Shown piece after piece: positions 8,720 through 30,758 of a stretch of 32,000 nucleotides of DNA. The notes beneath the pieces are model-generated. The model did no database searches. It worked only from the letters and a program-made list of their open reading frames with translations, and was not told the DNA's origin. A program made the translations under genes and the position numbers. This DNA is from Caldivirga maquilingensis IC-167 (GTDB lineage: Archaea; Thermoproteota; Thermoprotei; Thermoproteales; Thermocladiaceae), in assembly GCF_000018305.1 (NCBI RefSeq), contig NC_009954.1:1500001-1532000 (forward strand), given 5' to 3'. Numbering within the stretch: position 1 is the first letter of the stretch; the number at the start of each line of letters is the position of its first letter.

Positions 8720-8729
8720 GGTTTAACCA

Positions 8730-9686: not shown

Positions 9687-9702
9687 TCAGTATGCGGGTT
9701 GA

Positions 9703-12346: not shown

Positions 12347-12396
12347 GGTTCATTCACCGGTGGAAATTCATTAACGCATTCAATGCACGGCATCGT

Positions 12397-13128
12397 TCAC
12401 TGTGTGGTTAGGGGTCTTAGGTTTATTAAAATTGCGTTACCCCTAGCCTCCTCACCATCAATGACCACGGGCCTGCCTAGGGATTCCGCTACCAGGGATG
12501 CGACTATTGATGCCATTGGTGAACCAAGCACAGTATTCACTATTGTGCCGTCGTATGGGTTAATTAACCTAGGCCTATTAACCAAAACCACCACTGAGTC
12601 GCCTGTAAATGTTGCCTCAACACCCTTGGCTAAGGATAGGTGGTTCACAATGCAGTTGCTTAACGTTGAATTCAAGTCACTGGACACTGAGCCGACGCTT
12701 AGGCACTCCTCAACGGCCCTAGACCCCATTGACCTAACCTTAATCCCCACATCACCTGGACCGGGACCATACTTAACCATGAATCCCCTAGGCACAATAC
12801 CGCTTAACTTAACGTCACCCCACTGGGGTATGAGGGCGTAGGGCTTAGAGTCCTCAACCATGCTTGAGGGTAGGTAAATGGCCCTTGAAGCAGTGCCCAC
12901 GCTTTCTAGGAGTAGGGCTAGGTTATCCCATGATGAGGATGATAACCTAAGCTCAGTCTCCTGAAGCACACCCTCACCCCAATTAGCCAGTAAACCCACT
13001 AGTGCCGTTGATACGCCGAGTATCATTAATGGTGTTGAATCAATAACCAGTAACCCAATTACCGCAACCCCAATACCAAGGATGATTAGGCTTAGGCCTA
13101 ATTCACCATTCACATTAAACCAAGCCAC
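12397..13128 (-). CDS. Hypothetical membrane protein, first gene of the MoxR operon
   Basis: 243 aa with two N-terminal TM helices and then a soluble domain. It lies 50 nt upstream of the DUF4129 gene on the same strand. A tttaaattaa element at 13131-13140 sits too close to GTG 13128, so GTG 13113 may be the real leaderless start. Confidence 0.55.
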   Translation of the reverse strand: MAWFNVNGELGLSLIILGIGVAVIGLLVIDSTPLMILGVSTALVGLLANWGEGVLQETELRLSSSSWDNLALLLESVGTASRAIYLPSSMVEDSKPYALIPQWGDVKLSGIVPRGFMVKYGPGPGDVGIKVRSMGSRAVEECLSVGSVSSDLNSTLSNCIVNHLSLAKGVEATFTGDSVVVLVNRPRLINPYDGTIVNTVLGSPMASIVASLVAESLGRPVVIDGEEARGNAILINLRPLTTQ

Positions 13129-13201: not shown

Positions 13202-13612
13202 ATGTTCACTTCCCTCAAGGAGGCCCAGTTACTGGTTAAGGAATTCCTAAGTAGGAGTATTGATAATGTTGGCTTAAGTCTCATTTCAACAATTAGGAGG
13301 AGGGCTATTAGGCTTAACGCGTGGTGGAGGCTTAACCCAATTAAGAGGGGCCTCCTTGAGGCGGCTTTAACCTACATGAGGCGTGGGGGTTCATTTAAGT
13401 CGAGGATTGCCTTAACCATGATTAAGGATGCCGTGGTGGATGCCTTAACAATAATACTCACAGGCAGCATCAGGTTCATGGCCTACGTAGTGGGGTTAAG
13501 GTTAATGAGTAGGCTTAGCCACATGCCCCACGCCTTAAAGTCCTGGGAATTAATCATACTGGGTATACAATGGTTAAACACACCCCTAATATACAGAGCA
13601 CCATTAATCTAA
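13202..13612 (+). CDS. Hypothetical protein, 10 nt upstream of archaeal ATPase paralog 2
   Basis: 136-aa basic, helical ORF. I recognise no motif. It has a good promoter context and is tightly spaced from the next gene. Confidence 0.45.
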   Translation: MFTSLKEAQLLVKEFLSRSIDNVGLSLISTIRRRAIRLNAWWRLNPIKRGLLEAALTYMRRGGSFKSRIALTMIKDAVVDALTIILTGSIRFMAYVVGLRLMSRLSHMPHALKSWELIILGIQWLNTPLIYRAPLI

Positions 13613-13622
13613 GCCATGCAAA

Positions 13623-14645
13623 ATGAGGCGCATTAAGCTAAGATTCTCAGGGCAGGAGATTGAATTCACAGACCGTGAAGTAGCCATTAGGCAGATTGAG
13701 AAATTGGCTGAGAAGGGTACGTGGAACCCAGTAGTCATATACGGGCCTGAGGGTTGCGGTAAGTCCGCGTTCTTAAAGCAAGCTGTTGAGGTTCTTGGGG
13801 AGTATGATTACTCTGTTGTTAAGGTAAGTCCACTTGAGGATGAGTCCAATGAGAAGTTAAGGTACTCTGAGGAGTTGAGGGGATTGTTCAGGGACATAAT
13901 GACCCGCATACCCACCCCCTTCAATGATGCGTCAGCCTTAATTGACATAGCTATCTCACTACTCTACGATGTGGTGAGGAGGAGGATTAGGCGAAAAATA
14001 GCCCTACTAGCCGATGACGTATTCCAGGCCATTGGCCTAGACAAGGCAGAACTACTAGTTAAAAGACTCCTAAACATGATAGAGTACTCATCGGTTGATT
14101 ATGAAAGGATTGTGGTGATAGTGGCCACAAGTGAGGGGGTGACTTGGGGGCGTATTGGGCGTCATAGGTGGGCTGAGATAATGGCAATGTGGAACATGCC
14201 CAGGGAGGGGTTTGGGAAGCTTTACAACGCATTGCCTGGGCCGAAACCACCATTTGAGGAAGTATGGAGGTGGACGGGCGGGAACCCTAAGGCATTGGAA
14301 ATGCTGTATAAGAAGGGATGGGATATAAATAATGTGGTGAATGAAGTAATCTTTCAACGTAAAGTAACGGAGCTAGTAAGTCAGCTGAACGAGACGGAAA
14401 AGGAGATACTGGAGCAGGCATTGGAGGATCCAGACGTATTACTGAGAAGAATCCGCGATGGAGAAAAACTACTGAACACGCTAATAGACATGAACCTCGT
14501 ATTGAGAGTGCCTGAATTCAGGACTGAGTACTTATGGGTCGACCAACCACCACCTGAGAGGGATCTTGGACTCGGCATTGGCAGGTACTACACGTGGCAG
14601 ACGCCGCTGCACAGGGAGGCTGTGAGGAGAGCCTTGGAAAACTGA
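13623..14645 (+). CDS. Archaeal ATPase family protein (PF01637-like), paralog 2
   Basis: 340 aa. Walker A is YGPEGCGKSAFL and Walker B is IALLADDVFQ. VATSEG and the LGIGRYYTWQTPLHREAVRRAL tail are present. Confidence 0.85.
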   Translation: MRRIKLRFSGQEIEFTDREVAIRQIEKLAEKGTWNPVVIYGPEGCGKSAFLKQAVEVLGEYDYSVVKVSPLEDESNEKLRYSEELRGLFRDIMTRIPTPFNDASALIDIAISLLYDVVRRRIRRKIALLADDVFQAIGLDKAELLVKRLLNMIEYSSVDYERIVVIVATSEGVTWGRIGRHRWAEIMAMWNMPREGFGKLYNALPGPKPPFEEVWRWTGGNPKALEMLYKKGWDINNVVNEVIFQRKVTELVSQLNETEKEILEQALEDPDVLLRRIRDGEKLLNTLIDMNLVLRVPEFRTEYLWVDQPPPERDLGLGIGRYYTWQTPLHREAVRRALEN

Positions 14646-14800
14646 ACATGTTAACGCTAATTCATGGATTATTAAATGAGAGTAATGTGGAGTACACTGT
14701 TCAGTTTAACCATAGCCCTCAAGTACTAGTTAAAGTAATTGAATCAAGTCATGTTGCAGTACACTACCATTCCTAAGGAAATAGAATTAGACTATTTAGA

Positions 14801-15226
14801 GTGAGCGGCGAGTACCCTGCTATTCTTAGGAGGAGGGCCGAGGCCATGCTGGCACTAGCTCAGAGGTTACTGAATGAGGGTGAGTATGATCTGGCAGTAC
14901 TCAATGCGGAGTACGCAGCACAACTATACCTCAAAAGCCTACTCTATAGGTTAACTGGGGAGGAGTGGCGAGGGCACGGTATACGTGAACTCCTTGGGGC
15001 ACTGGCCGTGGCGTTAAAAAACCTAAACCAGGATGAAGGGGCTGATGAGGTGGCGGAGTACGTTAGGAGGTATAGGGCGTATCTAGCGGAGTTGGAGGAG
15101 GGGCATGTTAGGTCCGTGTACGGTGTTTACAGCTACGGGAGGGACCAGGCGGAGGCCCTGGTCTCCACGGCAGGAAACCTCATAAGCTTCCTCCAAAAAA
15201 TAGAGAGGGGGGTTTTCGGCGAATGA
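14801..15226 (+). CDS. HEPN domain protein (PF05168 type), partner of the downstream minimal nucleotidyltransferase
   Basis: 141 aa. LNEGEYDLAVLNAEYAAQLYLKSLLYRLTG...GHGIRELL and LEEGHVRSVYG...DQAEALV fit the HEPN four-helix pattern. No canonical Rx4-6H motif is visible. It starts at a GTG and has an ATGA overlap with the next gene. Confidence 0.7.
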   Translation: MSGEYPAILRRRAEAMLALAQRLLNEGEYDLAVLNAEYAAQLYLKSLLYRLTGEEWRGHGIRELLGALAVALKNLNQDEGADEVAEYVRRYRAYLAELEEGHVRSVYGVYSYGRDQAEALVSTAGNLISFLQKIERGVFGE

Positions 15227-15552
15227 TGGATGAGAGGTTAAGCATGCTCAGGGAGTGGAGGGAATGGGCGAGGGCGGTGGCGGAGGCGGTGAAGAGGGTT
15301 AGGGGGGATGCGGAGGTTTACGTAATTGGGGGTGCAGTCGAGGGTAGGCTTACGGTACTAAGCGACATAGATGTACTCATAGCCCTACCACAAAGCCCAA
15401 GCCTCCAGGAGGCTGCAAAACTAAGGGCAGAGGTATGGGTTGAGATGGAGAGGATGGGACTACCACCACACTTACCAATAGAGCTGCACATAATAGGTAC
15501 GGAACAACTAGCCAGGTACATCAAGGGGAAGCCCGTGGTGAGGTTAGCGTAG
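15223..15552 (+). CDS. Minimal nucleotidyltransferase (MNT, Pol-beta superfamily)
   Basis: 109 aa. VYVIGGAVEGRLTVLSDIDVLIA matches the G[GS]x9-13DxD motif. The stop codon lies 1 nt before the start of ATPase paralog 3. Confidence 0.8.
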   Translation: MMDERLSMLREWREWARAVAEAVKRVRGDAEVYVIGGAVEGRLTVLSDIDVLIALPQSPSLQEAAKLRAEVWVEMERMGLPPHLPIELHIIGTEQLARYIKGKPVVRLA

Positions 15553-15553
15553 C

Positions 15554-16579
15554 ATGAAGCGGGTAAAACTCAGGTTTGCGGACCGTGAGGTGGAGTTCGT
15601 GGATAGGGAGGTGGCAATAAGGCAAATTGAGGAATTGGCTGGAAAAGGCACATGGTGGCCCCTGGTAATCTACGGGCCTGAGGGTTGCGGGAAATCAGCA
15701 CTCCTTAAACAAGCCATTGAGGTGCTTAGAGAATATGGTTACGAAGTTTCATACATAAGCCCACTGTCCAGGTCTGGGGAGGATAGGTTCACCCTCACAG
15801 AGGGATTGAGGCGGTTAGTAACGGGCGTTGGCTCACTGCTAATTGGCGATGCATCAAGACTGATTAACATAGCCGTGGAGTTACTCTATGACGCGGTCAG
15901 GAAAAGGCTCACAGGGAGGATAGCCTTATTAGCCGATGATGTCTTCCAAGCCATTGGACTAGATAAAGCGGAATTGCTCGTAAAGGGACTACTAAACATG
16001 GTAGAGTACCCATCAGTTGATTATGAGAAAATCGTCATACTCGTATCCTCAAGTGAAGGAATAACCTGGGAACGTATTGGGCGTCATAGGTGGGCTGAGA
16101 TAAAGATCATGTGGAGCATGCCCAAGGAGGGGTTTAGGCAATTATATGAGCAAGTACCGGGACCAAAGCCGGACTTTGAACAAGTATGGAGATGGACTGG
16201 TGGAAACCCAGAAATGTTAGAGAGACTCTATGGGGCAGGCTGGGACATTAACGGCATAATCAACGACATGATTAAGGACAGGAAACTAGACATTATGGTG
16301 AAAACCCTAGACAGGGAGCAGGTGCAGATACTAAGGCGGGCCATTGAGGACCCAGATGTGATTTATGATGAGGCGGCTAGGGCTATGCCGCTAATGGATA
16401 AATTAATCGAGAATAACCTAATCATCAGGATATGGTACAGGGAGCAAAGGGTGTGGATCGATCAACCACCTGAAAAAGACCCAGAACTGGGCATAGGCAC
16501 CCACTTCGCCTGGCAGACGCCAATGCACAGGGAGGCCGTGAGGAGGGTGCTGGGCAATGAACTTGAAAGGCATAGATGA
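15554..16579 (+). CDS. Archaeal ATPase family protein (PF01637-like), paralog 3
   Basis: 341 aa. It has YGPEGCGKSALL, IALLADDVFQ and LGIGTHFAWQTPMHREAVRRVL. It shares a 31-nt identical tract with paralog 2. Confidence 0.85.
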   Translation: MKRVKLRFADREVEFVDREVAIRQIEELAGKGTWWPLVIYGPEGCGKSALLKQAIEVLREYGYEVSYISPLSRSGEDRFTLTEGLRRLVTGVGSLLIGDASRLINIAVELLYDAVRKRLTGRIALLADDVFQAIGLDKAELLVKGLLNMVEYPSVDYEKIVILVSSSEGITWERIGRHRWAEIKIMWSMPKEGFRQLYEQVPGPKPDFEQVWRWTGGNPEMLERLYGAGWDINGIINDMIKDRKLDIMVKTLDREQVQILRRAIEDPDVIYDEAARAMPLMDKLIENNLIIRIWYREQRVWIDQPPEKDPELGIGTHFAWQTPMHREAVRRVLGNELERHR

Positions 16580-16967
16580 AAACTACGTGACAAGCCTAAT
16601 GAGGGACATTGAGGGTGTAATAAATGAAATCGTAAACATATCCTCAAAACCATTCAATGAACTATCCACTGCGGAGAAATACGCAATTAGATACGGCATA
16701 ATAGTAATCGCAGAAGCACTAACAGCCCTGGGCATCGAGCCCGAACCCCCAATCCACGCACTCAGGGTACTAAGGGACAACGGACTTTTAACCCTAAACG
16801 AGTGTGATGAACTCGAAAGGCTCATAAGGCTAAGGAACCTCCTCGTACATAGGTACTGGACCGTGGATGATAGGAGGATTTACGAAAACATAAAGGGAGA
16901 CTTCAAACACATACTCAACCTAATTGATAGATTAAAGAGGGTGCAAAACCATGACAACAGTATTTAA
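16557..16967 (+). CDS. hepT: DUF86/HepT-type HEPN toxin
   Basis: 136 aa. RLIRLRNLLVHRYWTVDDRRIYE contains the canonical Rx4H (RNLLVH) motif of DUF86 HEPN RNases. It overlaps the ATPase 3' end by 23 nt; an alternative start is ATG 16599. Confidence 0.8.
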   Translation: MNLKGIDENYVTSLMRDIEGVINEIVNISSKPFNELSTAEKYAIRYGIIVIAEALTALGIEPEPPIHALRVLRDNGLLTLNECDELERLIRLRNLLVHRYWTVDDRRIYENIKGDFKHILNLIDRLKRVQNHDNSI

Positions 16968-17340
16968 GTACTACAGGCTTAATGAGGAGGAGAGGAGGAG
17001 GGTCGCCGAGAAACTGAGGGAGGTCCTCGTAACCGAGGGGGTGAAGTTAGCAATAATCTTCGGAAGCTTCATAGAGCTAGGGAGCTTCAGGGACATAGAC
17101 ATCGCAGTATACCTAGAAGACCCAGGGGACCTTGACAAAATCCTAAGGCTAGGAGTAAAACTCGAAGACACAATCAAAATCCCGGTGGACGTAGTCCCAA
17201 TCCAGGAACTACCACCAAAGCTCAGGCATAAAATACTAACCAAGGGCATGGTCATACTAGAGGAACCAGGCATGTACGAGGCGCTATGGTCTCAAACAAT
17301 GGATGAATTAACAATAATGAACACAACAAACACCCACTGA
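16951..17340 (+). CDS. mntA: MntA-type nucleotidyltransferase antitoxin
   Basis: 129 aa. LAIIFGSFIELGSFRDIDIAVYL gives the GSx10DxD motif, and PVDVVPIQELPPKLRHKILTKG is also present. It overlaps hepT by 17 nt and stops 4 nt before ATPase paralog 4. Confidence 0.8.
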   Translation: MTTVFKYYRLNEEERRRVAEKLREVLVTEGVKLAIIFGSFIELGSFRDIDIAVYLEDPGDLDKILRLGVKLEDTIKIPVDVVPIQELPPKLRHKILTKGMVILEEPGMYEALWSQTMDELTIMNTTNTH

Positions 17341-17344
17341 GCAC

Positions 17345-18361
17345 ATGAAGAGGGTAAGGCTGAGGTTCGCTGGGCGCGAGGTGGAGTTCGTGGATAGAGA
17401 AGCCGCTATTAAGTGGATCGGGGAGCTGGCTGAGAGGGGCACCGGCTTAGTCCGCGTAGTTTATGGGCCCGAGGGTTGTGGTAAGTCTGCGTTGTTTAAG
17501 CAAGCCGTGGAGGTCCTCAGGGACCACGGCTACGAGGTCTCGTACATAAGCCCACTGTCTAGAGCCGATGAGGACAGGCTAATCCTCACCGAGGGGCTTA
17601 GGAAATTGTTCGTGGACCTTGGGTCCGTCTTCGTTGGTGACGCAGCAAGACTAATCGACACAGCCGTGAAATTGCTATACGACGCAGTGAGGAGGAGGCT
17701 TACAGGGAGGATAGCCCTACTCGCCGATGACGTATTCCAAGCAGTAGGGCTGGACAAAGCTGAGCTGTTAGTCAAAGGATTCCTAAACATGATAGAGTAC
17801 CCGCCGGTTGATTATGAGAAGATAGTCGTAATAGTGGCGTCGAGCGAAGGCGTCACAAGGGGGAGAGTGGGTAGGCACAGGTGGGCGTTTTTACACATCA
17901 TGTGGAACATGCCCAGGGAAGGCTTCGAGAAACTCTACGAGGAAATACCTGGGCCAAAGCCCCCGTTTGAAGACGTGTGGAAATGGACCGGTGGGAACCC
18001 CAAGGCGCTGGAAACCCTCTGGGAATTAAACTGGGACGTAGACAGATACGTAGACAACGTGATAAAGTCGAGAGAGCTTATGAAAATGGCGGCGGAGCTA
18101 AGCAGCGCAGAAACCGAAATACTGACACAGTCGCTGGATGACCCGGACGTCCTCTTAAAACGGTACAGGGAGGCCAAGGGACTCGTGCAGAGACTTATAG
18201 AGAACAACTTGATAATAGAGATATGGAAAAGGGACCAGGACTGGGTGGACGTGCCGCCGCCCGAGAGGGATCCCGAGCTGGGCATCGGAAAATACTTCGC
18301 CTGGCAAACACCAATGCACAGGGAAGTGGTAAAGAGGGTACTCGAGGAAACAAAAACATAA
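17345..18361 (+). CDS. Archaeal ATPase family protein (PF01637-like), paralog 4
   Basis: 338 aa. It has YGPEGCGKSALF, IALLADDVFQ and LGIGKYFAWQTPMHREVVKRVL. The 5' end is about 60% GC by hand count. Confidence 0.85.
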   Translation: MKRVRLRFAGREVEFVDREAAIKWIGELAERGTGLVRVVYGPEGCGKSALFKQAVEVLRDHGYEVSYISPLSRADEDRLILTEGLRKLFVDLGSVFVGDAARLIDTAVKLLYDAVRRRLTGRIALLADDVFQAVGLDKAELLVKGFLNMIEYPPVDYEKIVVIVASSEGVTRGRVGRHRWAFLHIMWNMPREGFEKLYEEIPGPKPPFEDVWKWTGGNPKALETLWELNWDVDRYVDNVIKSRELMKMAAELSSAETEILTQSLDDPDVLLKRYREAKGLVQRLIENNLIIEIWKRDQDWVDVPPPERDPELGIGKYFAWQTPMHREVVKRVLEETKT

Positions 18362-18383
18362 ACCCCCACACAACCAAACACAC

Positions 18384-18941
18384 ATGGCAACCATAACAAT
18401 ACCCAAGAAACTATACGAAGCACTAAGGAAACACGGAATAGACGTAGAGACAAAGGCAATTGAGGCACTACTAAAAGAAGCCCAACTAGACCCCAATGAA
18501 GAAGCCGAGATACACCTAGAACTAGCACAAAAACTCCTCAATGAAGGCGAAGCACTGATCGAGAAGGACCCCATACAAGCAGGCGAGAAGCTGTATAAGG
18601 CGGCCGAGGAAAGCGTCAAGGCGCTAGCCATACACTACAACCTAAAGGACATACTCGAAAAAGCGAGAGATAGAGGTAGATGGACAGTTACGGAGCTCGA
18701 AAAAGCAGTCCTCCAGATCTCGAGCAGAGCCGGCGAGTGGTTCAGAAGAGCCTGGGACGCAGCATGGACACTACATGTATGGGGATTCCACGAAGCAAAA
18801 TTCGACAGCGAGGACGTGAGGGAGAGGGAGCCCGACATTAAGAGAATAATTGAGGAGGCGATAAAAGCGATAGGCAGGGACGGGGAGAACAAAGACTTTA
18901 AAGACACCACGGACAATAAACACAGTGAAACTACACATTAA
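18384..18941 (+). CDS. PaREP1-like protein (archaeal PaREP1/PaREP8 family, HEPN-clan-like helical protein)
   Basis: 185 aa. EAEIHLELAQKLLNEGEALIEKDPIQAGEKLYKAAEESVKALA...RGRWTV...WFRRAWDAAWTLHVWGFHEAKFDSEDV resembles my recollection of the PaREP1 consensus. No Rx4-6H motif is visible. Confidence 0.55.
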   Translation: MATITIPKKLYEALRKHGIDVETKAIEALLKEAQLDPNEEAEIHLELAQKLLNEGEALIEKDPIQAGEKLYKAAEESVKALAIHYNLKDILEKARDRGRWTVTELEKAVLQISSRAGEWFRRAWDAAWTLHVWGFHEAKFDSEDVREREPDIKRIIEEAIKAIGRDGENKDFKDTTDNKHSETTH

Positions 18942-19848
18942 GAACTGGAGAAGCATAGAGGAAGTAGAGATAGAACTAAAGCCAGTAACAATAATCATGG
19001 GGCCAAACGACGCAGGGAAATCAAGCCTCGCATACGCACCGTACTTCCTAACAAAAACCATCAAGTGGAGAGACGCAAACAAAGTACTAAAATTACTATA
19101 CGGCACAGAACTAAACAACATCGCAAGGCACGAATACGACAAACCACAATACCCAGTAATAATCGAAGTAGACGGAGCACGCTTCAAGGCTCAAAACCCC
19201 AACGATGTAAAGAAAGCCGACATAGAGATAGCTGGGGAAAGTCCCTGGAACGACGGCTACCTACTACCATCGGGAAGGCTTACCTTCATGAAAATGCTAC
19301 GAATAGTGCCTAGAATCCTCAGACAGATAACAAGAACACGAGACTATTCAGCATTTCCACCACCGATGTACCTATTCCTCGATGATTTAGTGAGGATTCA
19401 CGGGATTGGCCCCCTACTACTGGAGCATGAACTAACCGAGTACACAGACCCATTTGCAAAAGCAAAACTACCACTAAACCTAGCACCAGACGGAACCACA
19501 GACCACTCACTAATAAACCTCTTCATAAACAACGTCCAGGAAGGCAGCCTACTAATCATCGAGGAACCAGAAATACACAAAAACCCAACCCTAGTGATAG
19601 AACTCACAAGACAAATAACACAGGAAGCAATAAACAAAAAACTAACAATAATAATAACAACACACAGCGACATAATACCACAAACAATAGCCAAAACCGT
19701 GGAAGAAGGCAAAACAAAGCCGAACAACGTAGCAATCTACTACCTAGAGAGAAAACCCTGGACACAGGCAAGGGAACTAAAGATCCACGAAGACGGCACA
19801 ATAGAGGAACTACCAGACGTGGAGAAAATAATCACGGAATTATTCTAA
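18925..19848 (+). CDS. Compact ABC/SMC-type ATPase (AAA_15/AAA_21-like, no coiled coil)
   Basis: 307 aa. NWRSIEEVEIELKPVTIIMGPNDAGKSSL gives the N-terminal strand and Walker A. LAPDGTTDHSLINL is signature-like. LLIIEEPEIHKNPTLV gives Walker B and the EEPE.h.hP motif typical of AAA_21. IIITTHSD is the H-loop. It overlaps the upstream gene by 17 nt. Confidence 0.7.
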   Translation: MKLHIKNWRSIEEVEIELKPVTIIMGPNDAGKSSLAYAPYFLTKTIKWRDANKVLKLLYGTELNNIARHEYDKPQYPVIIEVDGARFKAQNPNDVKKADIEIAGESPWNDGYLLPSGRLTFMKMLRIVPRILRQITRTRDYSAFPPPMYLFLDDLVRIHGIGPLLLEHELTEYTDPFAKAKLPLNLAPDGTTDHSLINLFINNVQEGSLLIIEEPEIHKNPTLVIELTRQITQEAINKKLTIIITTHSDIIPQTIAKTVEEGKTKPNNVAIYYLERKPWTQARELKIHEDGTIEELPDVEKIITELF

Positions 19849-19849
19849 C

Positions 19850-20404
19850 ATGACCCTACACGTAATCCTAGACCACTCAGCACTCATACCCTGCGGAGAC
19901 AAGCCAAAGGAGGAGAAAGAGGCGATAAGAGAGATCATGAATAGGATCATGGACATAGACGTAACATGGCACGTAACCGGATACTACCTTAAAGTACTAA
20001 ACACGGTACTCAACAAAAACCTAAAGAACCACCACCCACTCCCCAGGTTACTAGCATCATTAGAAAGAACAAAAAGATACCTCCTGGAACTCTCAAGGAG
20101 CAAACAAATTATATGCAAACCACGCAGGCTTAAAAGCTTAAAAATACACGTAATAGCAAGGAAGGCCTCGGAAAGGGTAGAGATACCCCATAGCGAAAGA
20201 CTAAACGAGATAAACAACGAAGACGTAGAAATAATCGCAATAGGATTGACAATTGCAGAAAGAATAAAAGGCGAAAAACCAGTGTACATAGTCACGACAG
20301 ACACAAAACTTGAAGAAGCCATAGATGAACTAGAGAAACTAGGAATAAAAGAATTAAAGGCAATAACACCAAGCAAATTATTAGAAGAATTACCAAAACA
20401 ATGA
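19850..20404 (+). CDS. PIN-like domain protein (putative nuclease partner of the ABC-type ATPase)
   Basis: 184 aa. It has an N-terminal HVILDHSAL (strand plus Asp), internal acidic positions (EEKEAIRE, NEDVEIIAIGL) and a C-terminal VYIVTTDTKLEEA, matching the spacing of the PIN acidic quartet by eye. It starts 1 nt after the ATPase stop. Confidence 0.5.
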   Translation: MTLHVILDHSALIPCGDKPKEEKEAIREIMNRIMDIDVTWHVTGYYLKVLNTVLNKNLKNHHPLPRLLASLERTKRYLLELSRSKQIICKPRRLKSLKIHVIARKASERVEIPHSERLNEINNEDVEIIAIGLTIAERIKGEKPVYIVTTDTKLEEAIDELEKLGIKELKAITPSKLLEELPKQ

Positions 20405-20416
20405 AAGCATAGAAGC

Positions 20417-21508
20417 ATGAGGATAGTACACGTAGCACCATTTTATAAACCGGTAATAGGCGGCGTGGAGGAGGTAGTGCAAAGAATAGCGGAGTACACA
20501 GCAGCTAGGGGGCATGAGGTACACGTAATCACATACAATAGGCTCAGGACAGGAGGCAAAGGTGCACTACCAAGGGAGGAATGGATCAATGGGGTGCATG
20601 TAATAAGGCTGAAACCAAACTTAACATGGAGTCACGGAACATACAGTAGGGAACTACCTGAAGTACTTAGGAAACTAAAGCCAGACCTAGTCCATGTGCA
20701 CGTGTGGAGGCACCCACATGTAATCCAGGTGGCAAGGCTAAGGAGGGAGATGGGATTCAAAGCGATACTGCATGGTCATGCACCATTCCATAAACTAAAC
20801 CAAGTGGGGCCAATAACCTGGACATATTATAAACTCGTAGACACAACGCTAAGAAGCATCCTAAAGAATTACGACACATACATAGCATTAACGAAACATG
20901 AAGCAGAAACAATAAGGAGAATGGGACTAGAAGAAGACAAAATAATGGTAATACCGAATGGAATAAACCAGGATCAATGCATACTAAGCAATGAAAGAGA
21001 GGACATGGTACTTTACCTGGGTAGAATCAGTAAGGTAAAGAACATTGAATTACTAGTAAAGGCCGCGAAATACATAAAGCATGCACAATTAGTAATTGCA
21101 GGGCCAGATGAAGGACTAATAAATACAATACTACAATATGCAGGAAAACACAACATAGAAGTAAAGTATCTAGGCGCAGTGAGTGAGGAAAAGAAACATG
21201 AATTATACCTAAAAGCCAAGGCCTATGCACTACCATCAATATATGAACCATTTGGAATAACACTACTCGAAGCAGGAATACACGCAACACCAAGCGTGAT
21301 AACGGGGAATGGGGGACAAGTCTACGCAGCACCACCAGGTAAGGCAAGCCTATGGGCAGAACCAAAGCCGGAGAAATACGCTGAAGCCATCATACAACTG
21401 CTAACCGACCAAGAGCTACATAGGAGATTAAGCCAAGGCGCTCTTCAGCACGCTGAACAACACCTATGGAGCAAAATACTACCAAGGTACGAGGAAATAT
21501 ATGGCTAA
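20417..21508 (+). CDS. Glycosyltransferase family 4 (GT-B, Glyco_trans_4 + Glycos_transf_1)
   Basis: 363 aa. The N-terminus is MRIVHVAPFYKPVIGGVEEVV...GHEVHVIT. The C-terminal motif is PSIYEPFGITLLEAGIHATPSVIT (Ex7E). Confidence 0.85.
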   Translation: MRIVHVAPFYKPVIGGVEEVVQRIAEYTAARGHEVHVITYNRLRTGGKGALPREEWINGVHVIRLKPNLTWSHGTYSRELPEVLRKLKPDLVHVHVWRHPHVIQVARLRREMGFKAILHGHAPFHKLNQVGPITWTYYKLVDTTLRSILKNYDTYIALTKHEAETIRRMGLEEDKIMVIPNGINQDQCILSNEREDMVLYLGRISKVKNIELLVKAAKYIKHAQLVIAGPDEGLINTILQYAGKHNIEVKYLGAVSEEKKHELYLKAKAYALPSIYEPFGITLLEAGIHATPSVITGNGGQVYAAPPGKASLWAEPKPEKYAEAIIQLLTDQELHRRLSQGALQHAEQHLWSKILPRYEEIYG

Positions 21509-22493
21509 ACCATTAATCAGTGTAGTAATTACGGCATATAATAGGAGGGAGTACTTAAGGTACGCTGTTAAATCGGTGCTAAACCAAACCTTGGATAGAA
21601 ACTTCTATGAAGTAATAGTCATAAAGAACTTCGAAGACTCATACACAGACAAATTAATTGAAGGAGTGGGTAGAACAATAAACGTAGACATAGCATCAAT
21701 AGGCGCAAAAATAGCCCTGGGAATAAGGGAGTCTGAGGGTGAAGTGGTGGCATTCCTTGAAGATGACGACTTATGGCATAGTAGGAAGCTAGAGCATGTA
21801 GCCGAGGCATTCAGAAATAACAATGACCTAATGTACTACCACCACAATACATACGCAATAGATAAATACGGAAACATAATACATGACTCGCTCATTGAGA
21901 GGACGAACATAAATAATTACGTATATGCCAGCAACGAAGATGAGAAAATGAAAGTATTCAAACAGTATGGTTGGGGCCTTGGTCTCAGGAACAGCTCCAT
22001 AGCCGTAAGAAGGGATGTATACGAAAAATACGCACCTATAATAAGACTCCTCCCAGATGCGGTGGATGTGGCACTATACCTGGTAGCGTTAAGCGTAAAG
22101 GGTTCAATAATTCATGAACCACGGAGATTAATGTTCTTTAGAATACACGAGACAAACACAAGTAGCGTGAGATTCGCACCACAGAGTGAAAGGCTACATA
22201 GGGTAGCCGTGAACTCTGTAAAACATACCATAGCAAGATATGCACTAGCAACCATCGCCAGGCACATAAAGCCCCAACTAACCAGATACGCAGGCTATGA
22301 CGAAGCATCAATAGTAGCGGGCATATTAGCAAATTGGAGGGGATACACGGCAGTAATGAGTTTAAATTTATTAAATCATTGTAAATCACTAACATGCCTA
22401 GCAACGGCAATACTAGGCATTATAAACACAATAAGCCCAGAACTAACGAAGAGAATCATCACACTATACTACACTAAAGGATTCAGACTCTAA
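21501..22493 (+). CDS. Glycosyltransferase family 2 (GT-A)
   Basis: 330 aa. It has ISVVITAYNRREYLRYAVKSVLNQT and the DxD motif AFLEDDDLW. It overlaps the upstream gene by 8 nt. Confidence 0.85.
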   Translation: MAKPLISVVITAYNRREYLRYAVKSVLNQTLDRNFYEVIVIKNFEDSYTDKLIEGVGRTINVDIASIGAKIALGIRESEGEVVAFLEDDDLWHSRKLEHVAEAFRNNNDLMYYHHNTYAIDKYGNIIHDSLIERTNINNYVYASNEDEKMKVFKQYGWGLGLRNSSIAVRRDVYEKYAPIIRLLPDAVDVALYLVALSVKGSIIHEPRRLMFFRIHETNTSSVRFAPQSERLHRVAVNSVKHTIARYALATIARHIKPQLTRYAGYDEASIVAGILANWRGYTAVMSLNLLNHCKSLTCLATAILGIINTISPELTKRIITLYYTKGFRL

Positions 22494-23632
22494 TGATAAT
22501 AGTACACACGCATCATCACTACTGGCCGGTAGCGGGAGGAATAGAAAATGCAATTAAATACCTCGCCGAGGAACAGGCAAAACTTGGTCACGAGGTGCAC
22601 ATAGTAACGGGCACCTATGGAGCCCAGAAAAGACCTAGGGAGGAAGAAATAAACGGTGTGCACGTACATAGAATTAAGGCGTGGAGATTAGGCTACCCAG
22701 ACCTAACAATACCAAGGGAAACACCTAGGGAACTGCTCAAGAGGGCTGACGTGATTCATGCTCACTCACAAAACAGCTTATTCTCAGTGAGAATAGCCCA
22801 GGAGGCACATGAGCTAGGTGTTAAGGTAGCCATACACTACATGGCTGTCGACACCCTCCAAACACACCCAAACCCAGCCATAAGGCTCCTTGGACCAATA
22901 TACGCCAGGAGAAACCTAGAAATGGCAAAGGAAATAGCGGACATACACCTAGCAAGAAGCAAAAGGGACGTAGAAAAACTAAGAAAATACGGAATACAAG
23001 CACACTACCTACCAGACGCAATACCAAAACACTACCTAACAAAACCCAAAGCAGACCCAGAGGAATTCAGGAGGAAATACGGAATAACACAGGACAAACT
23101 ATTCATATACATAGGAAGAATACACAAACTCAAGGGACCACACGTACTAGTCAAGGCGCTACCATACCTAAGCAACGACATAGCAATAATAATGGCAGGA
23201 CCAGACAACGGATACCTAAAACAAACCCTAGAACTAGCCAATAAACTACACGTGAAAGACAGACTATATTACCTAGGCTACGTAGACGAAGATACAAAAA
23301 TAAACGCCATAGACGCATCAACGGCGCTAGTCCTACCATCAACCACAGACTATGTAGAGGTATACCCCATGACAATAACCGAGGCATGGGCAAGAGAAAA
23401 ACCAGTAATAGCCACAAACGTAGGAGGAATACCATACAGGGTAACACACGGCATAAACGGACTAATAATACCACCAAACAACCCACAGGAACTAGCCAAA
23501 GCAATACAACAACTAGCAAACAACCCAGAAAAGACACAACAAATGGGTAAGGAGGGTAAAAAGGAAATCAAGACATGGGACGAAATCGCAAAAGAAACCA
23601 TAAAAATATACAACACCACAAACAACCCATGA
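22493..23632 (+). CDS. Glycosyltransferase family 4
   Basis: 379 aa. It has MIIVHTHHHYWPVAGGIENAIKYL...GHEVHIVT and VEVYPMTITEAWAREKPVIATNVGGIPYRVTHGINGLII. The junction with the upstream gene is a TAATG overlap. Confidence 0.85.
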   Translation: MIIVHTHHHYWPVAGGIENAIKYLAEEQAKLGHEVHIVTGTYGAQKRPREEEINGVHVHRIKAWRLGYPDLTIPRETPRELLKRADVIHAHSQNSLFSVRIAQEAHELGVKVAIHYMAVDTLQTHPNPAIRLLGPIYARRNLEMAKEIADIHLARSKRDVEKLRKYGIQAHYLPDAIPKHYLTKPKADPEEFRRKYGITQDKLFIYIGRIHKLKGPHVLVKALPYLSNDIAIIMAGPDNGYLKQTLELANKLHVKDRLYYLGYVDEDTKINAIDASTALVLPSTTDYVEVYPMTITEAWAREKPVIATNVGGIPYRVTHGINGLIIPPNNPQELAKAIQQLANNPEKTQQMGKEGKKEIKTWDEIAKETIKIYNTTNNP

Positions 23633-24564
23633 AAGCCCTAATAACAGGAGGGGCAGGATTCATAGGAAGCCACCTAGTAGATAAACTACTAGCAAGGGGC
23701 TACCAAGTCAAGGTAATAGACAACCTAAGCACGGGAAGAATAGAAAACATAACCCACGTACTAAACAAAATACAATTCACCAAAACAGACCTAAAAAACA
23801 TAGAAGACACACTAAAAGCACTCAAAGACACAGACGTAATATTCCACTTCGCGGCAAACCCGGAGGTCAGGGTCAGCACAGTCAGCCCTGAGGTGCACTT
23901 CAACGAGAACGTGGTCGCCACGTTCAACCTGCTCGAGGCAATGAGGAGGATGGACGTGAGGGAGATTGTGTTCGCGTCGTCTAGCTCGGTCTACGGGGAG
24001 CCTGAGGAAATACCGGTAAGCGAGGACGCGCCAACAAGGCCCGTCTCGGTCTACGGAGCGAGTAAGGCGGCCTGCGAAAATCTGATACACGCGTACTCAA
24101 GGCTCTACGGGATGAAGGCGGTGATCCTGAGGTACGCGAACGTGGTTGGGCTGAGGCTGAGGCACGGTGTAATATACGACTTAATCATGAAATTAAGGAA
24201 GGACCCAACCAGGCTGGAGGTGCTCGGCGATGGGACCCAGGTCAGGAGCTACATACACGTGGATGACGCCGTGGAGGCAACGTTAATAGCCCACGAGAGG
24301 ACTGGAGGCGGCTACCACGTATTCAACGTGGCGAGCGAGGACTGGATAACCGTGGACGAAGTCGTAAACATAATCACGGAGGAACTCGGGGCAAAGCCAG
24401 AGATAATCCACAAACCAATCCTACATGGCGTTGGCTGGCCAGGGGACGTGAAGAGGATAGCCCTGAGGATAGACAGGCTCAGGGAGCTGGGCTTCAAGCC
24501 GAGAATGAATAGTAAAGAAGCCGTGAGGGTTACCGTAAAGGCACTAATCAGGGAATCAGGATAA
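23629..24564 (+). CDS. NAD-dependent epimerase/dehydratase (extended SDR; UDP-sugar 4-epimerase or decarboxylase-like)
   Basis: It has MKALITGGAGFIGSHLV, FASSSSVYG and YGASKAACE (YxxxK). I prefer ATG 23629, which forms an ATGA overlap with the upstream stop, over the ORF-track start 23575, whose 18-aa extension overlaps the GT4 gene. Confidence 0.85.
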   Translation: MKALITGGAGFIGSHLVDKLLARGYQVKVIDNLSTGRIENITHVLNKIQFTKTDLKNIEDTLKALKDTDVIFHFAANPEVRVSTVSPEVHFNENVVATFNLLEAMRRMDVREIVFASSSSVYGEPEEIPVSEDAPTRPVSVYGASKAACENLIHAYSRLYGMKAVILRYANVVGLRLRHGVIYDLIMKLRKDPTRLEVLGDGTQVRSYIHVDDAVEATLIAHERTGGGYHVFNVASEDWITVDEVVNIITEELGAKPEIIHKPILHGVGWPGDVKRIALRIDRLRELGFKPRMNSKEAVRVTVKALIRESG

Positions 24565-24591
24565 TCATGGAATTAGCCATAAGTTAGGAGG

Positions 24592-25173
24592 ATGATGAAG
24601 ATTTTCTATAAGTTAGGAGTACAAACTGCTGGTAGGCTTGGACTCTACGTTGAGAGAACAAGAACTTACTTAAAAATTATTTTGAGGTTGATACGCGTTT
24701 TAAGGACATTAAGAAGTAAGTGTATAGCCTTAGACTTAGGCTGCGGTGATGGCTACTTTGCTTATAAAGTATCACGTCTTTGCATGTATGTTTTAGGTAT
24801 CGATATAAAATTTCACAATTCCTGGAAATCTAAACATAATGTAAATACGGAATATATTGTGGCTGATGCACGCTATTTACCGCTACGGTCTAATAGTATT
24901 GACCTTATTTACGCACTTTCACTCTTGGAGCTAGTGGAACCCCATACTAAGTTACCATTACTAGGTCTAGTACCGAAGACCCTGAGGAGAGTAATTTTGC
25001 ATCATTCTAACTATTCTGATTTACAATTTAATATACACTTAAAGAACTTAATCAGAGAGTTAAGAAAACAGTACTTTAATGTAATCGGTATAGTTCCTCA
25101 TTACCATTCTAAACATTTAAGAGTTATTCCCATAGCACCATCATATTTTATAATAGCATTAAAGGAATTATGA
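24592..25173 (+). CDS. Class I SAM-dependent methyltransferase (Methyltransf_11-like)
   Basis: 193 aa. Motif I is ALDLGCGDGYFAYKV and the post-I region is VADARYLPLRSNSIDLIYALSLLELV. Its composition differs from both neighbours (about 32% T and 34% GC in a hand-counted 120 nt). Confidence 0.6.
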   Translation: MMKIFYKLGVQTAGRLGLYVERTRTYLKIILRLIRVLRTLRSKCIALDLGCGDGYFAYKVSRLCMYVLGIDIKFHNSWKSKHNVNTEYIVADARYLPLRSNSIDLIYALSLLELVEPHTKLPLLGLVPKTLRRVILHHSNYSDLQFNIHLKNLIRELRKQYFNVIGIVPHYHSKHLRVIPIAPSYFIIALKEL

Positions 25174-25220
25174 TAATTTCAGTTTTTAAAGAACCCATGA
25201 GAGTTACCTAACAAAGGGCC

Positions 25221-26237
25221 ATGCTTAAGATAGCCCTAGCCCTAGGCTACTATGAAATCGGCGGCTTCAAAACAGTAATAGACAACCTAGCAGCAAAACT
25301 CAGCGAAAAAGGACACGAAGTCACAGTATACGCAAGGGTAATAAGAACAAAACCGCCAAAGGATGTTAACGTTATCAAAGCATCACCACAGGAATTCTAT
25401 AGAGAAACTAGAAAACACGACATAATACACGTACATACATCATACCCATACCTAAAAGTACTCGCTGACAACAACGCACTAGACAACGTAGTATTCACAT
25501 ACCATGGATACGCACCTTGGTATGAAGTACCAGGCACAACAAGCAAACTAATAAACCTATACCTACTGATTATGTACAAAAGACTACTCAAGAAGGTCAA
25601 AGTAGTAACCGCAGTCAGTAATTACGTAAAAGAACAAGTAAGAAAATTATTCAATAGGGAGGCCATAGTGATTTACAATGGCGTAAATCTCACAGTATTT
25701 AAACCAAATATGAATATAAATAAGCAGACTAACGAAATAATAATATTCAATGCAACTGCGTGGAACAGATTCAAGGGGCAGGAACGCCTAATTAAATATT
25801 ACAGGGTAATAAAAAGACAATACCCAAATGCAAAACTAATGATGAGGGGCAACTACCAAGGTAACTCTGAGGATATACAAGTGCTCCCGCCCATGGACCC
25901 AACGGAACTAGCCAAGTACTACTCAATGGCAACATTCTATTTACTAGTATCATCGTGGGAGAGCTTCGGCTTACCAATAATTGAAAGCATGGCATGCGGA
26001 ACCCCAGTAATAGCCTGGGACAGACCAGACGCCAGGCGCGAACACATACTCAACTCAGGTGCGGGCTACTTATTCAGGAACGAGGAAGAATTGCTACAGG
26101 CGGTTAAGAATGTAATAGAAAACAGAGAGGAACTGTCACAAAAAGCCATAAACTACGCAAGGCAATTTGACTGGGAAAATATTGTCAATAAATACCTAGA
26201 TGCCTACGGTGTGATCATCAATGAGGAAATACAATAA
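25221..26237 (+). CDS. Glycosyltransferase family 4
   Basis: 338 aa. It has IGGFKTVIDNLAAKLSEKGHEVTVYA and SSWESFGLPIIESMACGTPVIAWD. Confidence 0.8.
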   Translation: MLKIALALGYYEIGGFKTVIDNLAAKLSEKGHEVTVYARVIRTKPPKDVNVIKASPQEFYRETRKHDIIHVHTSYPYLKVLADNNALDNVVFTYHGYAPWYEVPGTTSKLINLYLLIMYKRLLKKVKVVTAVSNYVKEQVRKLFNREAIVIYNGVNLTVFKPNMNINKQTNEIIIFNATAWNRFKGQERLIKYYRVIKRQYPNAKLMMRGNYQGNSEDIQVLPPMDPTELAKYYSMATFYLLVSSWESFGLPIIESMACGTPVIAWDRPDARREHILNSGAGYLFRNEEELLQAVKNVIENREELSQKAINYARQFDWENIVNKYLDAYGVIINEEIQ

Positions 26238-27840: not shown

Positions 27841-28760
27841 CATACATAACTTACTCTGGGATACCGCACCTGGGACATGTAACATGGGTTTCACTGCTTA
27901 AGCTCATAGCAAAAACAAGGGTTATAAGTTATAAGGAGGTACTAATAAAACTACCCACAAATGAGATAATAATAGCAGAGGGTTTAAGACCAACATTAAT
28001 AAGCATGTCATTAAAACCATTGAATAAATGTATAGTAGCCATAGCCCTCTCACCATCAATCCTGAATAAAAAGGCACACATGCTGTACTCGAGGGCTGAC
28101 GTAATAATAGCTGTATCGGAAATGGTGAGACAATTATTTAATCCAGAAAAAATCGTGGTTGTACACCCAAGACCACCTGACCTAGAGCATTTAATAAAAC
28201 TGAACGTAGACGATAAAAAACCCTGGATATGCTACTCAGGCCCGTTAATACCAATAAAGGGGATCCACATCATACCCGAGGTGGTAAAACACATCACAAG
28301 GAGTGCAAATAATGTGAAAATGATAGTAATGGGCGCAGGGGACACGATGTCACTAAGAAGAAAAAGCAAGGAACTCGGAGTCGAGGATAAAATAGTCATA
28401 GCAGGACCACTCCCAAGACCAAAGGTAATAAATACATTACGCCACTGCAGCATCTACATGCAACCATCATTATTTGACGCATTCTCAATAGCTGTTGCTG
28501 AAGCAATGGCACTCGCAAACGTACCCATCATAACTAAGAATGTGGGATCAAAAGACCTAGTAGAAAAACTAGATAGATCGCTGATTGTAAGTTATGATAG
28601 CGAAGCCATAGCTCAAATAATACTAACAATCCTGAGCCCCAAAAACACGCAGGAGCTCGGTAAAAATGCCAGGGAAATAGTGGCCAGGGAGCTATCCCTG
28701 AAAAATACGGCAAGGAAACTAACAGAGGTACTTGAAAGATGCCTAAAGCATGCATATTAA
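27819..28760 (+). CDS. Glycosyltransferase (GT4-like, Glycos_transf_1 C-domain)
   Basis: 313 aa. It has PSLFDAFSIAVAEAMALANVPIITKNVGSKDLV and overlaps the upstream gene by 22 nt. Confidence 0.7.
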   Translation: MDSVGKVTYITYSGIPHLGHVTWVSLLKLIAKTRVISYKEVLIKLPTNEIIIAEGLRPTLISMSLKPLNKCIVAIALSPSILNKKAHMLYSRADVIIAVSEMVRQLFNPEKIVVVHPRPPDLEHLIKLNVDDKKPWICYSGPLIPIKGIHIIPEVVKHITRSANNVKMIVMGAGDTMSLRRKSKELGVEDKIVIAGPLPRPKVINTLRHCSIYMQPSLFDAFSIAVAEAMALANVPIITKNVGSKDLVEKLDRSLIVSYDSEAIAQIILTILSPKNTQELGKNAREIVARELSLKNTARKLTEVLERCLKHAY

Positions 28761-29743: not shown

Positions 29744-29801
29744 TAGTCACACGAGATACCCAAGGAGTGGATTATTCGAGGTTGCCCGTACAATAAGCCA
29801 C

Positions 29802-30757: not shown

Positions 30758-30758
30758 G

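Follow-up and report, generated by a model that had tools for sequence, protein, structure and literature searches.

Introduction

Defence islands, which Makarova is said to have described in 2011, and flexible glycosylation islands are the closest counterparts of the locus reported here, which shares with them the clustering of several conflict modules, a co-oriented polysaccharide cluster alongside, an atypical composition and a content that varies between species. The locus lies in a window of 32,000 nucleotides (nt) of Caldivirga maquilingensis IC-167 (contig NC_009954.1, positions 1,500,001 to 1,532,000 of the forward strand; all coordinates below are those of the window). It centres on a run of thirteen plus-strand genes at 14801-24564, in which toxin-like and ATPase genes lead directly into glycosyltransferase (GT) genes. 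An earlier reading of the bare sequence, hereafter the original prediction, had described this run and proposed that it joins defence genes to a glycan locus within one variable region.

Parts of the locus also have described relatives. Menshen is an anti-phage system reportedly described by Millman in 2022. It consists of NsnA (ParB/DUF262), NsnB, an OLD-ABC ATPase with a DUF3696 domain and an EN variant of the Walker B motif, and NsnC, in which an inactive PIN-like (inPIN) N-domain predicted to dock on DUF3696 is combined with a C-terminal effector (PMC12065111). PARIS (AriA/AriB), Septu (PtuA/PtuB), AbiL and Gabija (GajA) are two-gene defence systems of an ABC ATPase and a nuclease, in which a small effector comes after the ATPase in tight coupling. 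Pairs of a HEPN protein and a minimal nucleotidyltransferase (MNT) include the type VII HepT-MntA system, whose antitoxin neutralises the toxin by AMPylation. PaREP1 is an established HEPN-T member, and the passages of PMC3710099 and PMC3632139 that treat it give it no known antitoxin and no MNT association.

Gene content and limits of the locus

We think it rather probable that a variable island of mosaic make-up covers 13.2 to at least 31.7 kb, with conflict modules and an array of ATPase_2 genes lying co-oriented and directly upstream of a glycosyltransferase/epimerase cluster. This reading draws on gene content, module conservation, motif enrichment and linkage across genomes. Atypical composition goes together with a content that varies between relatives, as in a genomic island. 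The features are listed below (amino acids, aa; open reading frame, ORF; T5, a run of five T; negative positions count back from the start codon).

13202-13612, plus strand: X136, a small all-helical protein (TTAAATA at -30)
13623-14645, plus strand: ATPase_2 paralogue b, a P-loop protein of STAND/AAA+-like type (PF01637, 6e-74)
14646-14800, no strand: spacer of 155 nt, candidate promoter for the HEPN unit (aaatagaa at about -24 to -17)
14801-15226, plus strand: HEPN protein of PF05168 type (Pfam HEPN, 5.9e-22; GenBank ABW02259)
15223-15552, plus strand: minimal nucleotidyltransferase, partner of the HEPN protein (NTP_transf_2, 1.6e-7; G-G...SDID motif; ATGA overlap with the HEPN gene)
15554-16579, plus strand: ATPase_2 paralogue c (PF01637, 1.9e-74; no TATA-like box; GGTGAGG at -17 to -11)
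16557-16967, plus strand: HepT-like HEPN RNase toxin (PF01934, 6.8e-16; RNLLVH, an Rx4H motif)
16951-17340, plus strand: MntA-like nucleotidyltransferase antitoxin (Polbeta, 9.3e-16; GSF...RDIDI motif)
17345-18361, plus strand: ATPase_2 paralogue d (PF01637, 3.7e-72; TTAACAATAAT at -37 to -27)
18384-18941, plus strand: PaREP1, HEPN-T clade (PF05942, 2.9e-35)
18925-19848, plus strand: OLD/ABC-type ATPase without a nuclease domain, NsnB-like (AAA_15, 2.6e-19; AAA_21; weak DUF3696; CTTTAAAG at -29)
19850-20404, plus strand: PIN-like partner of the ABC ATPase, 184 aa, always 3' of the ABC gene in loci of the family
20417-21508, plus strand: GT4 glycosyltransferase (Pfam)
21501-22493, plus strand: GT2 glycosyltransferase (Pfam; GAGG at -10 to -7)
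22493-23632, plus strand: GT4 glycosyltransferase (Pfam)
23629-24564, plus strand: NAD-dependent sugar epimerase/dehydratase (Pfam Epimerase, 2.8e-61; ATAAAAATATA at -30 to -20)
24592-25173, plus strand: methyltransferase (Methyltransf_11, 2e-11; GGAGG just before the ATG; feature to 25187 including a T5 tract)
25221-31655, plus strand: continuation of the glycan cluster with a GT4, a 539-aa protein, two GT4 genes, a split GT4 (29802-30757) and an FkbM methyltransferase (Pfam)

The ORF list reproduces all thirteen genes of the run and the twelve junction values first reported for them: -4 (ATGA), +1, -23, -17, +4, +22, -17, +1, +12, -8, -1 (TAATG) and -4 (ATGA). The GenBank accessions ABW02259, 02261, 02264, 02265, 02266 and 02268 carry a numbering that fits the same thirteen genes as ABW02259-ABW02271, and the proteins of the window correspond to ABW02258 to ABW02273.

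The limits of this run are arbitrary. The unbroken series of plus-strand genes really extends from 13202 and reaches at least 31655, taking in 23 genes over 18.5 kb: two further genes (13202-13612 and the ATPase_2 gene at 13623-14645) precede the 155-nt gap, and ten further ORFs follow down to 31655 with gaps of 27, 47, -17, -22, -22, 58, 5 and 1 nt. Among the ten genes at the beginning of the window the strand changes 5 times. Two starts could be placed differently. For the epimerase, an in-frame ATG further upstream, at 23575, would create a 58-nt overlap; the start at 23629 is favoured since the Pfam domain begins at residue 3 of that form and other gene callers agree. For the first GT4 (20417), the 347-aa form in RefSeq would widen the upstream gap from 12 to 60 nt.

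Most of the domain assignments made from the letters alone are borne out by Pfam, namely HEPN, NTP_transf_2, ATPase_2, HepT-like, Polbeta/MntA, PaREP1, AAA_15/AAA_21, GT4, GT2, GT4 and epimerase. The gene called PIN has no Pfam match at E<=0.01.

Under the island reading, three diverged ATPase_2 paralogues would make up an array, with independently mobile conflict modules around and between them. The cargo would comprise X136 upstream of the first ATPase_2, the HEPN-NTase (nucleotidyltransferase) pair, the HepT-MntA type VII pair, PaREP1 downstream of the third ATPase_2, and the ABC-PIN pair, which resembles the NsnB-NsnC core. Defence and glycan genes may have accumulated in one long-lived hot-spot next to a conserved MoxR operon, and addictive toxin modules would probably help to retain a dispensable glycan cluster. 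We found no evidence that the defence and glycan genes act in one biochemical pathway.

Nothing in the locus is categorically new; as a defence and glycosylation island it is well behaved. Should the linkage serve a function or be maintained in evolution, it would offer a testable archaeal case of genes for intracellular immunity and for receptor-glycan diversity travelling together. Worth following up are the archaeal ABC-PIN pair that lacks NsnA, the association of ATPase_2 with PaREP1, and a block of unusual codon usage.

Linkage of defence and glycan genes in other genomes

The idea that defence genes are joined to a glycan locus in a variable region holds at the level of genus and family (loci L082, L045, L103 and L104). 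As for nearer relatives, each of the eight window proteins checked forms a singleton cluster, with no relative from another named genome at 90% identity, and exact-protein matches of window genes come only from contigs 100% identical to the window (SRR253096, SRR9435970/1). Because the ends of these contigs coincide with paralogous repeats, they say nothing on transcripts. The informative loci are the following.

L082, a 36-kb metagenome contig: ABC ATPase (49% identity), PIN-like gene (46%), GT2, short GT4 fragment, full-length GT4, more GT4 genes
L045, Vulcanisaeta distributa JCM 11216, all co-directional: ATPase_2 array, ABC-ATPase fragments, ATPase_2, PaREP1, ParE toxin, GT4 fragment, GT4, epimerase
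L083 and L084: sugar nucleotidyltransferase directly before ATPase_2-ABC-PIN
L086: ATPase_2-ABC-PIN, RmlC 2.5 kb after, then HEPN-NTase and an ATPase_2 remnant
Window 7448-13128, the MoxR operon: a protein of 243/241 aa, DUF4129, DUF4350, MoxR, DUF58-like gene

On L082, the stop of the PIN-like gene overlaps the start of the GT2 gene, and the full-length GT4 matches the window GT4 at 22493-23632 (43% identity, E 1e-95), of which it is a likely orthologue judging by this match. On L045, the ParE toxin gene directly abuts an N-terminal GT4 fragment that is 72% identical to the first GT4 of the window, and the epimerase is 71% identical.

The MoxR operon upstream of the run is conserved in V. distributa DSM 14429 (L103) and V. 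souniana (L104), flanked by Polysacc_synt, DUF1616 and GT2 genes. In both, ATPase_2 lies on the divergent side of the operon, with thermopsin in between in one and three unknown genes in the other. Pyrobaculum WP30 carries MoxR-operon genes, X136-ATPase_2-PaREP1 repeats and an epimerase within 20 kb. The whole MoxR neighbourhood appears to be a super-locus for cell-envelope and glycan genes.

What distinguishes the locus from described defence and glycosylation islands is that different genera share the frame, consisting of the ATPase_2 array and the GT4 and epimerase genes beside the MoxR operon, but carry different cargo. The frame therefore looks old and the cargo changeable, and the comparisons with L082, L045, L083/L084 and L086 suggest that the linkage of defence to glycan genes has been maintained.

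Base composition

The GC content steps from 0.52 to 0.41, 0.51 and 0.37 between modules, and codon usage varies along the run and departs from that of the core genes on its flanks. The clearest departure is a depletion of T at third codon positions (T3). Flanking genes, including the ATPase_2 copy at 1486 (0.35), have a T3 of 0.24-0.39. The values are 0.11-0.20 across 13202-16967 and 0.04-0.17 from MntA to the epimerase (16951-24564), after which the methyltransferase returns to 0.35, the next four genes (25221-29743) show 0.11-0.14 and the end genes (29802-31655) 0.26-0.36. The methyltransferase thus has a host-like, AT-rich composition within the T-depleted block. In the ATPase_2 copies inside the island, T3 falls progressively from 0.19 to 0.16 and 0.10.

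Within the depleted block, NNT codons are cut 4- to 10-fold and NNA codons roughly doubled in every four-fold codon family, and the third-position A content reaches 0.54. We looked for dinucleotide (UA, UU) avoidance as a sign of RNase-site avoidance and did not see it (odds ratios TA 1.24, TT 0.81). The depletion shows the same tendency in the L045 counterpart and is not found in GT clusters of other taxa. The signature crosses the boundary between defence and glycan genes and marks a history or selective regime unlike that of the core genes. As a very strong, strand-specific codon bias it may serve as a lead for marking the island.

T3 depletion also leads to an AT skew of 0.3-0.5 and to long antisense ORFs. 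These minus-strand ORFs of 128-197 aa, low in complexity and rich in S and L, lie at 17935-18528, 18155-18631, 18771-19187, 19984-20418 and 23151-23537. We rejected them as genes, since a T-poor sense strand leaves few antisense stop codons.

Several points weigh against the island reading. We found no tRNA genes and no att-like flanking repeats marking an island, and there are no Rfam matches and no integrase domain among the ORFs scanned. The ABC-PIN pair of L082, which abuts GT genes at similar divergence, and the T3 depletion shared across the boundary could point to a tighter functional or co-transfer link. The defence role of the components is a prediction from their sequences. With regard to transcription, treated below, the TATA and Shine-Dalgarno calls come from a home-made score on a small sample, and a single T5 tract (17888) in 14801-25183 makes long read-through possible, though the low T content predicts that count.

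The tighter link just mentioned would be a functional coupling of the defence modules with the glycan cluster: they would either stabilise or regulate the glycan genes or form with them a co-transferred 'virus-interface' cassette. We regard this as doubtful. On the one hand, L082 fits it, with ABC-PIN overlapping the first GT and the likely GT4 orthologue following at similar divergence, as does the ParE gene of L045 that abuts the GT4 fragment, and the T3-depleted codon usage spans MntA through the epimerase. Sugar-nucleotide genes also stand beside ATPase_2-ABC-PIN in L083/L084 and near it in L086, yet the more distant ABC-PIN loci L087, L092, L093, L097 and L099 have no detectable GT or ATPase_2 neighbours. 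In a comparison set of 76 loci with ATPase_2 homologues from Thermoproteales and Desulfurococcales genomes, the source genome not among them, GT or epimerase genes show no obvious excess near ATPase_2 (10 of 76 loci, close to a genomic density that is itself an estimate), and the toxin cargo differs between species.

ATPase_2 genes and their small neighbours

On our island reading, the ATPase_2 genes would form the backbone of the array. By Pfam, the run contains three copies, and a fourth lies elsewhere in the window, at 1486-2493. The four paralogues are 47-65% identical in protein (b and c 60%) and about 72-78% in DNA, and with protein identities this low they are old copies and not recent duplicates. 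By their Pfam matches, they are clear PF01637 members. The subfamily has no PDB relative at E<=0.01 and no match to a PADLOC model, and searching the literature on PF01637, COG1672 and Arch_ATPase we found nothing informative. STAND-like matches stay below the curated cut-offs (nSTAND_NTPase5 at most 25.6 bits, cut-off 34; NB-ARC at most 20 bits, cut-off 23.5) and no repeat domain is found.

The neighbours of ATPase_2 are informative. Among 45 small co-directional genes directly beside ATPase_2 in the comparison set, Pfam identifies 15 as PaREP1 and 1 as HEPN, compared with 3 PaREP1 among 45 size-matched control genes at least five genes from ATPase_2. With two local PaREP1 profiles (two seeds, covering the subfamily of about 185 aa), PaREP1-like genes were counted directly downstream of ATPase_2 in 14 cases versus 2.8 expected (0 of 3000 permutations) and directly upstream in 8 versus 2.8 (p about 0.007), in a test that counts paralogous and overlapping loci as independent. 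The gap between ATPase_2 and PaREP1 is typically 37-109 nt in related loci and 22 nt in the window, between ATPase_2 d and PaREP1. The window PaREP1, a Pfam member of the PaREP1/PaREP8 family (Anantharaman 2013, PMC3710099), is thus most likely the partner of the ATPase_2 d gene just upstream. The preferential position of the family beside ATPase_2, here and in related genomes, goes unmentioned in the passages on PaREP1 of PMC3710099 and PMC3632139. This recurrent pairing is a lead: ATPase_2 may be the 'missing partner' of PaREP1, an orphan HEPN family.

The first nine genes of the run had been divided into three triplets (HEPN-NTase-ATPase, HepT-MntA-ATPase and PaREP1-ABC-PIN), each opened by a protein of the HEPN clan. 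All three openers do belong to this clan. The third triplet does not survive as a unit, with PaREP1 pairing with the upstream ATPase_2 and ABC-PIN being autonomous. HEPN/MNT genes beside ATPase_2 are rare, with one case among the 45 neighbours and a further one in L086, where an ATPase_2 remnant comes after a HEPN-NTase pair, both of divergent sequence. This remnant (L086:7163-7369) encodes the N-terminal 68 aa of an ATPase_2 with a degenerate P-loop (YSLEECGKT), and it suggests decay of a HEPN-NTase-ATPase_2 arrangement in another organism. Better supported than the triplets are the modules X136-ATPase_2, HEPN-NTase, HepT-MntA, ATPase_2 followed by PaREP1, and ABC-PIN.

The domains and motifs that define the HEPN-MNT and type VII HepT-MntA systems are present in the two overlapping HEPN-MNT pairs (14801/15223 and 16557/16951). 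The second combines a HepT/DUF86-family gene with an Rx4-6H motif and an adjacent MNT with GSx(n)DxD, the two overlapping by 17 nt. In both, the HEPN gene comes first. They differ from the known system in that each is followed by an ATPase_2 gene. The HepT-like gene reaches 37.8 bits (1.5e-9) with NCBIfam HepT_toxin and the MntA-like gene 54.1 bits (1.2e-14) with NCBIfam MntA, both below the equivalog cut-off of 60.

X136 has homologues upstream of ATPase_2 in four other loci (L028:9567-9926, L061:9522-9944, L041:117-386 and L054:8410-8853). The family shares a conserved C-terminal G(L/I)QWLNTPxxYR motif, its AlphaFold2 (AF2) model has six helices (predicted local distance difference test, pLDDT, 75), and it has no Pfam, PADLOC or NCBIfam match. 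We tried X136 as a hidden HEPN-clan protein and rejected this: hhalign against PaREP1 gave a probability of 0.07, there was no PDB sequence match and Foldseek results were non-significant.

One could go further and see in these pairings a single conflict system, in which ATPase_2 is a STAND-like, NTP-dependent sensor or switch, HEPN, HepT, PaREP1 or X136 is the effector, and the triplets are real. We judge this improbable. The enrichment of PaREP1 on both sides of ATPase_2 would be expected, but the test behind it treats related loci as independent; the recurrence of HEPN-NTase before ATPase_2 in L086 is set against the single case in 45 neighbours and the absence of NTP_transf_2 among the top families. 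The matches to nSTAND_NTPase5 and NB-ARC agree with a sensor role but are weak and below cut-off, and neither a defence model nor a known structure matches the ATPase. Moreover, many ATPase_2 genes lack a small partner: 26 have an opposite-strand neighbour, 16 a distant one and 22 lie beside another ATPase_2. The system would give PaREP1 the counterpart missing from the published passages cited above, and it would agree with the frequent presence of ABC-type defence ATPases in the same arrays.

Tandem arrays of up to about nine ATPase_2 ORFs occur in L035 (Vulcanisaeta sp. JCM 14467), L045, L013 and L036, some of them fragmented in draft assemblies. ABC ATPases of AAA_15/21 type are often found in or beside ATPase_2 arrays.

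The ABC-PIN pair

A second conflict module of the proposed island is formed by the ABC ATPase and its PIN-like partner. The ABC protein (307 aa) has NsnB as its best PADLOC model (6.4e-25), with AriA nearly as good (2.4e-21), followed by PD-T4-4_A, HEC-01A, GajA and Old. Its PDB relatives are PtuA, OLD and GajA, its Walker B motif reads IIEEPE, and its C-terminal DUF3696 match is weak (18.4 bits, cut-off 22).

The PIN-like family is tiny, with 12 proteins in a collection of 5.8 billion sequences. An ABC-ATPase ORF lies immediately 5' of the PIN-like gene in 21 of 21 loci, usually overlapping it, and the wider neighbours vary; for this reason we treat ABC-PIN as an autonomous two-gene module. 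The family alignment has a VapC-like 'EDxEV...LVxTD' motif and four residues, D8, D125, E127 and D151, that do not vary. The AF2 model is a single alpha/beta domain (pLDDT 86), and some family members have weak PIN_3, PIN_4 and DUF5615 matches. Foldseek of the model against the PDB returned no match at E<=0.001. Of the weaker ones, chain M of an exosome complex has the highest probability (0.93) and may be the PIN-bearing DIS3 subunit. No PADLOC model matches the PIN-like partner.

Comparison with Menshen shows parallels. Like NsnB, the window ABC protein is an OLD-type ATPase with no nuclease domain, its DUF3696 match being below the cut-off, and a small PIN-like gene stands directly 3' of it, as NsnC does after NsnB. 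In contrast, no NsnA (ParB/DUF262) is found among the window neighbours or in the gene tables of L082-L086, and the partner consists of one domain of 184 aa and lacks a C-terminal effector of the NsnC type. Unlike the inactive inPIN of NsnC, it keeps its invariant acidic residues, and the Walker B of the ABC protein is IIEEPE and not the EN variant. The host, finally, is a crenarchaeon. By its sequence, the pair therefore looks PIN-like and similar to the Menshen core, and is not a member of Menshen. It is a lead towards a minimal, NsnA-less archaeal relative of the NsnB-NsnC core, possibly with an active PIN-like effector.

PARIS, Septu, AbiL and Gabija share with the pair the ATPase family (by PADLOC, including AbiLi, and PDB matches) as well as the architecture, but the window effector is PIN-like and not of the TOPRIM/DUF4435 or HNH type. 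Compared with GajA and OLD, the window ATPase lacks their fused TOPRIM domain, and its partner has no TOPRIM match.

On L083, a Desulfurococcales contig, an IS605-type OrfB/Y1 transposase pair (L083:2698-4366) lies about 3.5 kb upstream of ATPase_2-ABC-PIN.

Probable transcription units

The original prediction had left two possibilities for the run: one polycistronic unit of about 10 kb, or a set of units with internal promoters inside coding sequence. Motif evidence makes the former unlikely and agrees with the latter: TATA-like boxes are over-represented ahead of internal starts, a signal also found before ATPase_2 and ABC genes of other genomes.

The TATA-like score at -40 to -18 of the 13 starts is raised (p about 0.0006 against the local background, 0.01 against the whole run), and for all 23 starts none of 20000 resamplings reaches the observed mean. 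A+T content peaks at -30 to -21 of the run's starts. Clear boxes precede 13202 (TTAAATA), 17345, 18925 (CTTTAAAG), 23629 (ATAAAAATATA), 25221, 26221 and 30759, and starts with no box carry GGTG/GAGG Shine-Dalgarno-like motifs (15554, 16557, 16951, 21501 and 24592). The gap at 14646-14800 is the largest in the run and, as originally described, contains a TATA-like element; the aaatagaa lies nearer to the start than the canonical distance, and a better box is the TTAAATA at -30 of 13202.

The same geometry recurs elsewhere. In 89 ATPase_2 genes from other genomes, A+T peaks at 0.64-0.69 at -28 to -21, and 12 ABC genes show the same peak at this position, with none before PIN-like genes. This pattern would fit leaderless crenarchaeal promoters and a PIN-like gene translationally coupled to the ABC gene.

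The run may be read as about seven short units instead of one 10-kb operon. Leaderless units would start at TATA-like boxes in the 3' ends of upstream genes, at 13202, 14801, 17345, 18384, 18925, 20417, 23629 and 25221. Within units, translation would be coupled through overlaps or through Shine-Dalgarno-like GGTG/GAGG motifs (at 15554, 16557, 16951, 21501 and 24592). The predicted units are X136 (with or without ATPase_2 b); HEPN-NTase-ATPase_2 c-HepT-MntA; ATPase_2 d; PaREP1; ABC-PIN; GT4-GT2-GT4; and epimerase-methyltransferase, the last of which would end at the T5 tract at 25183.

Sense-strand T5 tracts are scarce: 14801-25183 holds one (17888), with about 1.4 expected, and the first clear T5 of the region, at 25183-25187, comes 10 nt after the methyltransferase stop. 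We rejected this scarcity as independent evidence of read-through, because low T content predicts it.

A single long operon, in which a promoter in the 155-nt gap drives 13 or more genes and toxins, ATPases and glycosyltransferases are co-expressed, seems to us unlikely. All junctions are at most 22 nt or overlapping, and five internal genes are preceded by Shine-Dalgarno-like motifs, as one would expect of such an operon, but most module-initial genes also have a TATA-like box at canonical distance, and ATPase_2 and ABC genes carry the signal family-wide, whatever adjoins them upstream. Toxin-antitoxin pairs normally form units that regulate themselves (Makarova 2009/2013). In other genomes the modules occur on their own, and the gene order of the run is not kept as a block: the sub-modules persist, but their order and the cargo lying between them vary. 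The lone T5 tract before the one just past the methyltransferase stop would also suit the operon, but base composition accounts for the count. Our literature search for Caldivirga transcriptomes found nothing usable.

Finally, we consider it highly improbable that about 16.9-24.6 kb (more weakly to 29.7 kb) is an anciently co-inherited 'virus-interface cassette' of Thermoproteales, in which RNase-type effectors (HEPN/HepT/PaREP1 under ATPase_2, PIN-like under the NsnB-like ABC) are tied functionally to glycan genes and U depletion (T3 down to 0.04) is adaptive, for example letting mRNAs survive the locus's own RNases or pass T-tract terminators, so that surface-glycan remodelling continues while other translation is shut down at the time of infection.

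Annotation and remnants

In the numbering of the original GenBank record, ABW02271 and 02273, the latter for the 539-aa protein, leave a single accession between them for the methyltransferase and the next GT4, one of which may therefore be unannotated there. Further downstream, a 181-aa ORF with no match (29802-30347) is followed 5 nt on by a 134-aa ORF (30353-30757) that matches only the C-terminal part of Glycos_transf_1, and 29802-30757 is probably a split or pseudogenised GT4. At the other end of the window, a 197-aa minus-strand fragment at 538-1131 resembles the exonuclease of family-B DNA polymerases and lies in AT-rich DNA (GC 0.32). This fragment, which may be the remnant of a mobile element, adjoins the fourth ATPase_2 paralogue (1486-2493) and an HTH_10 regulator (2617-3336).

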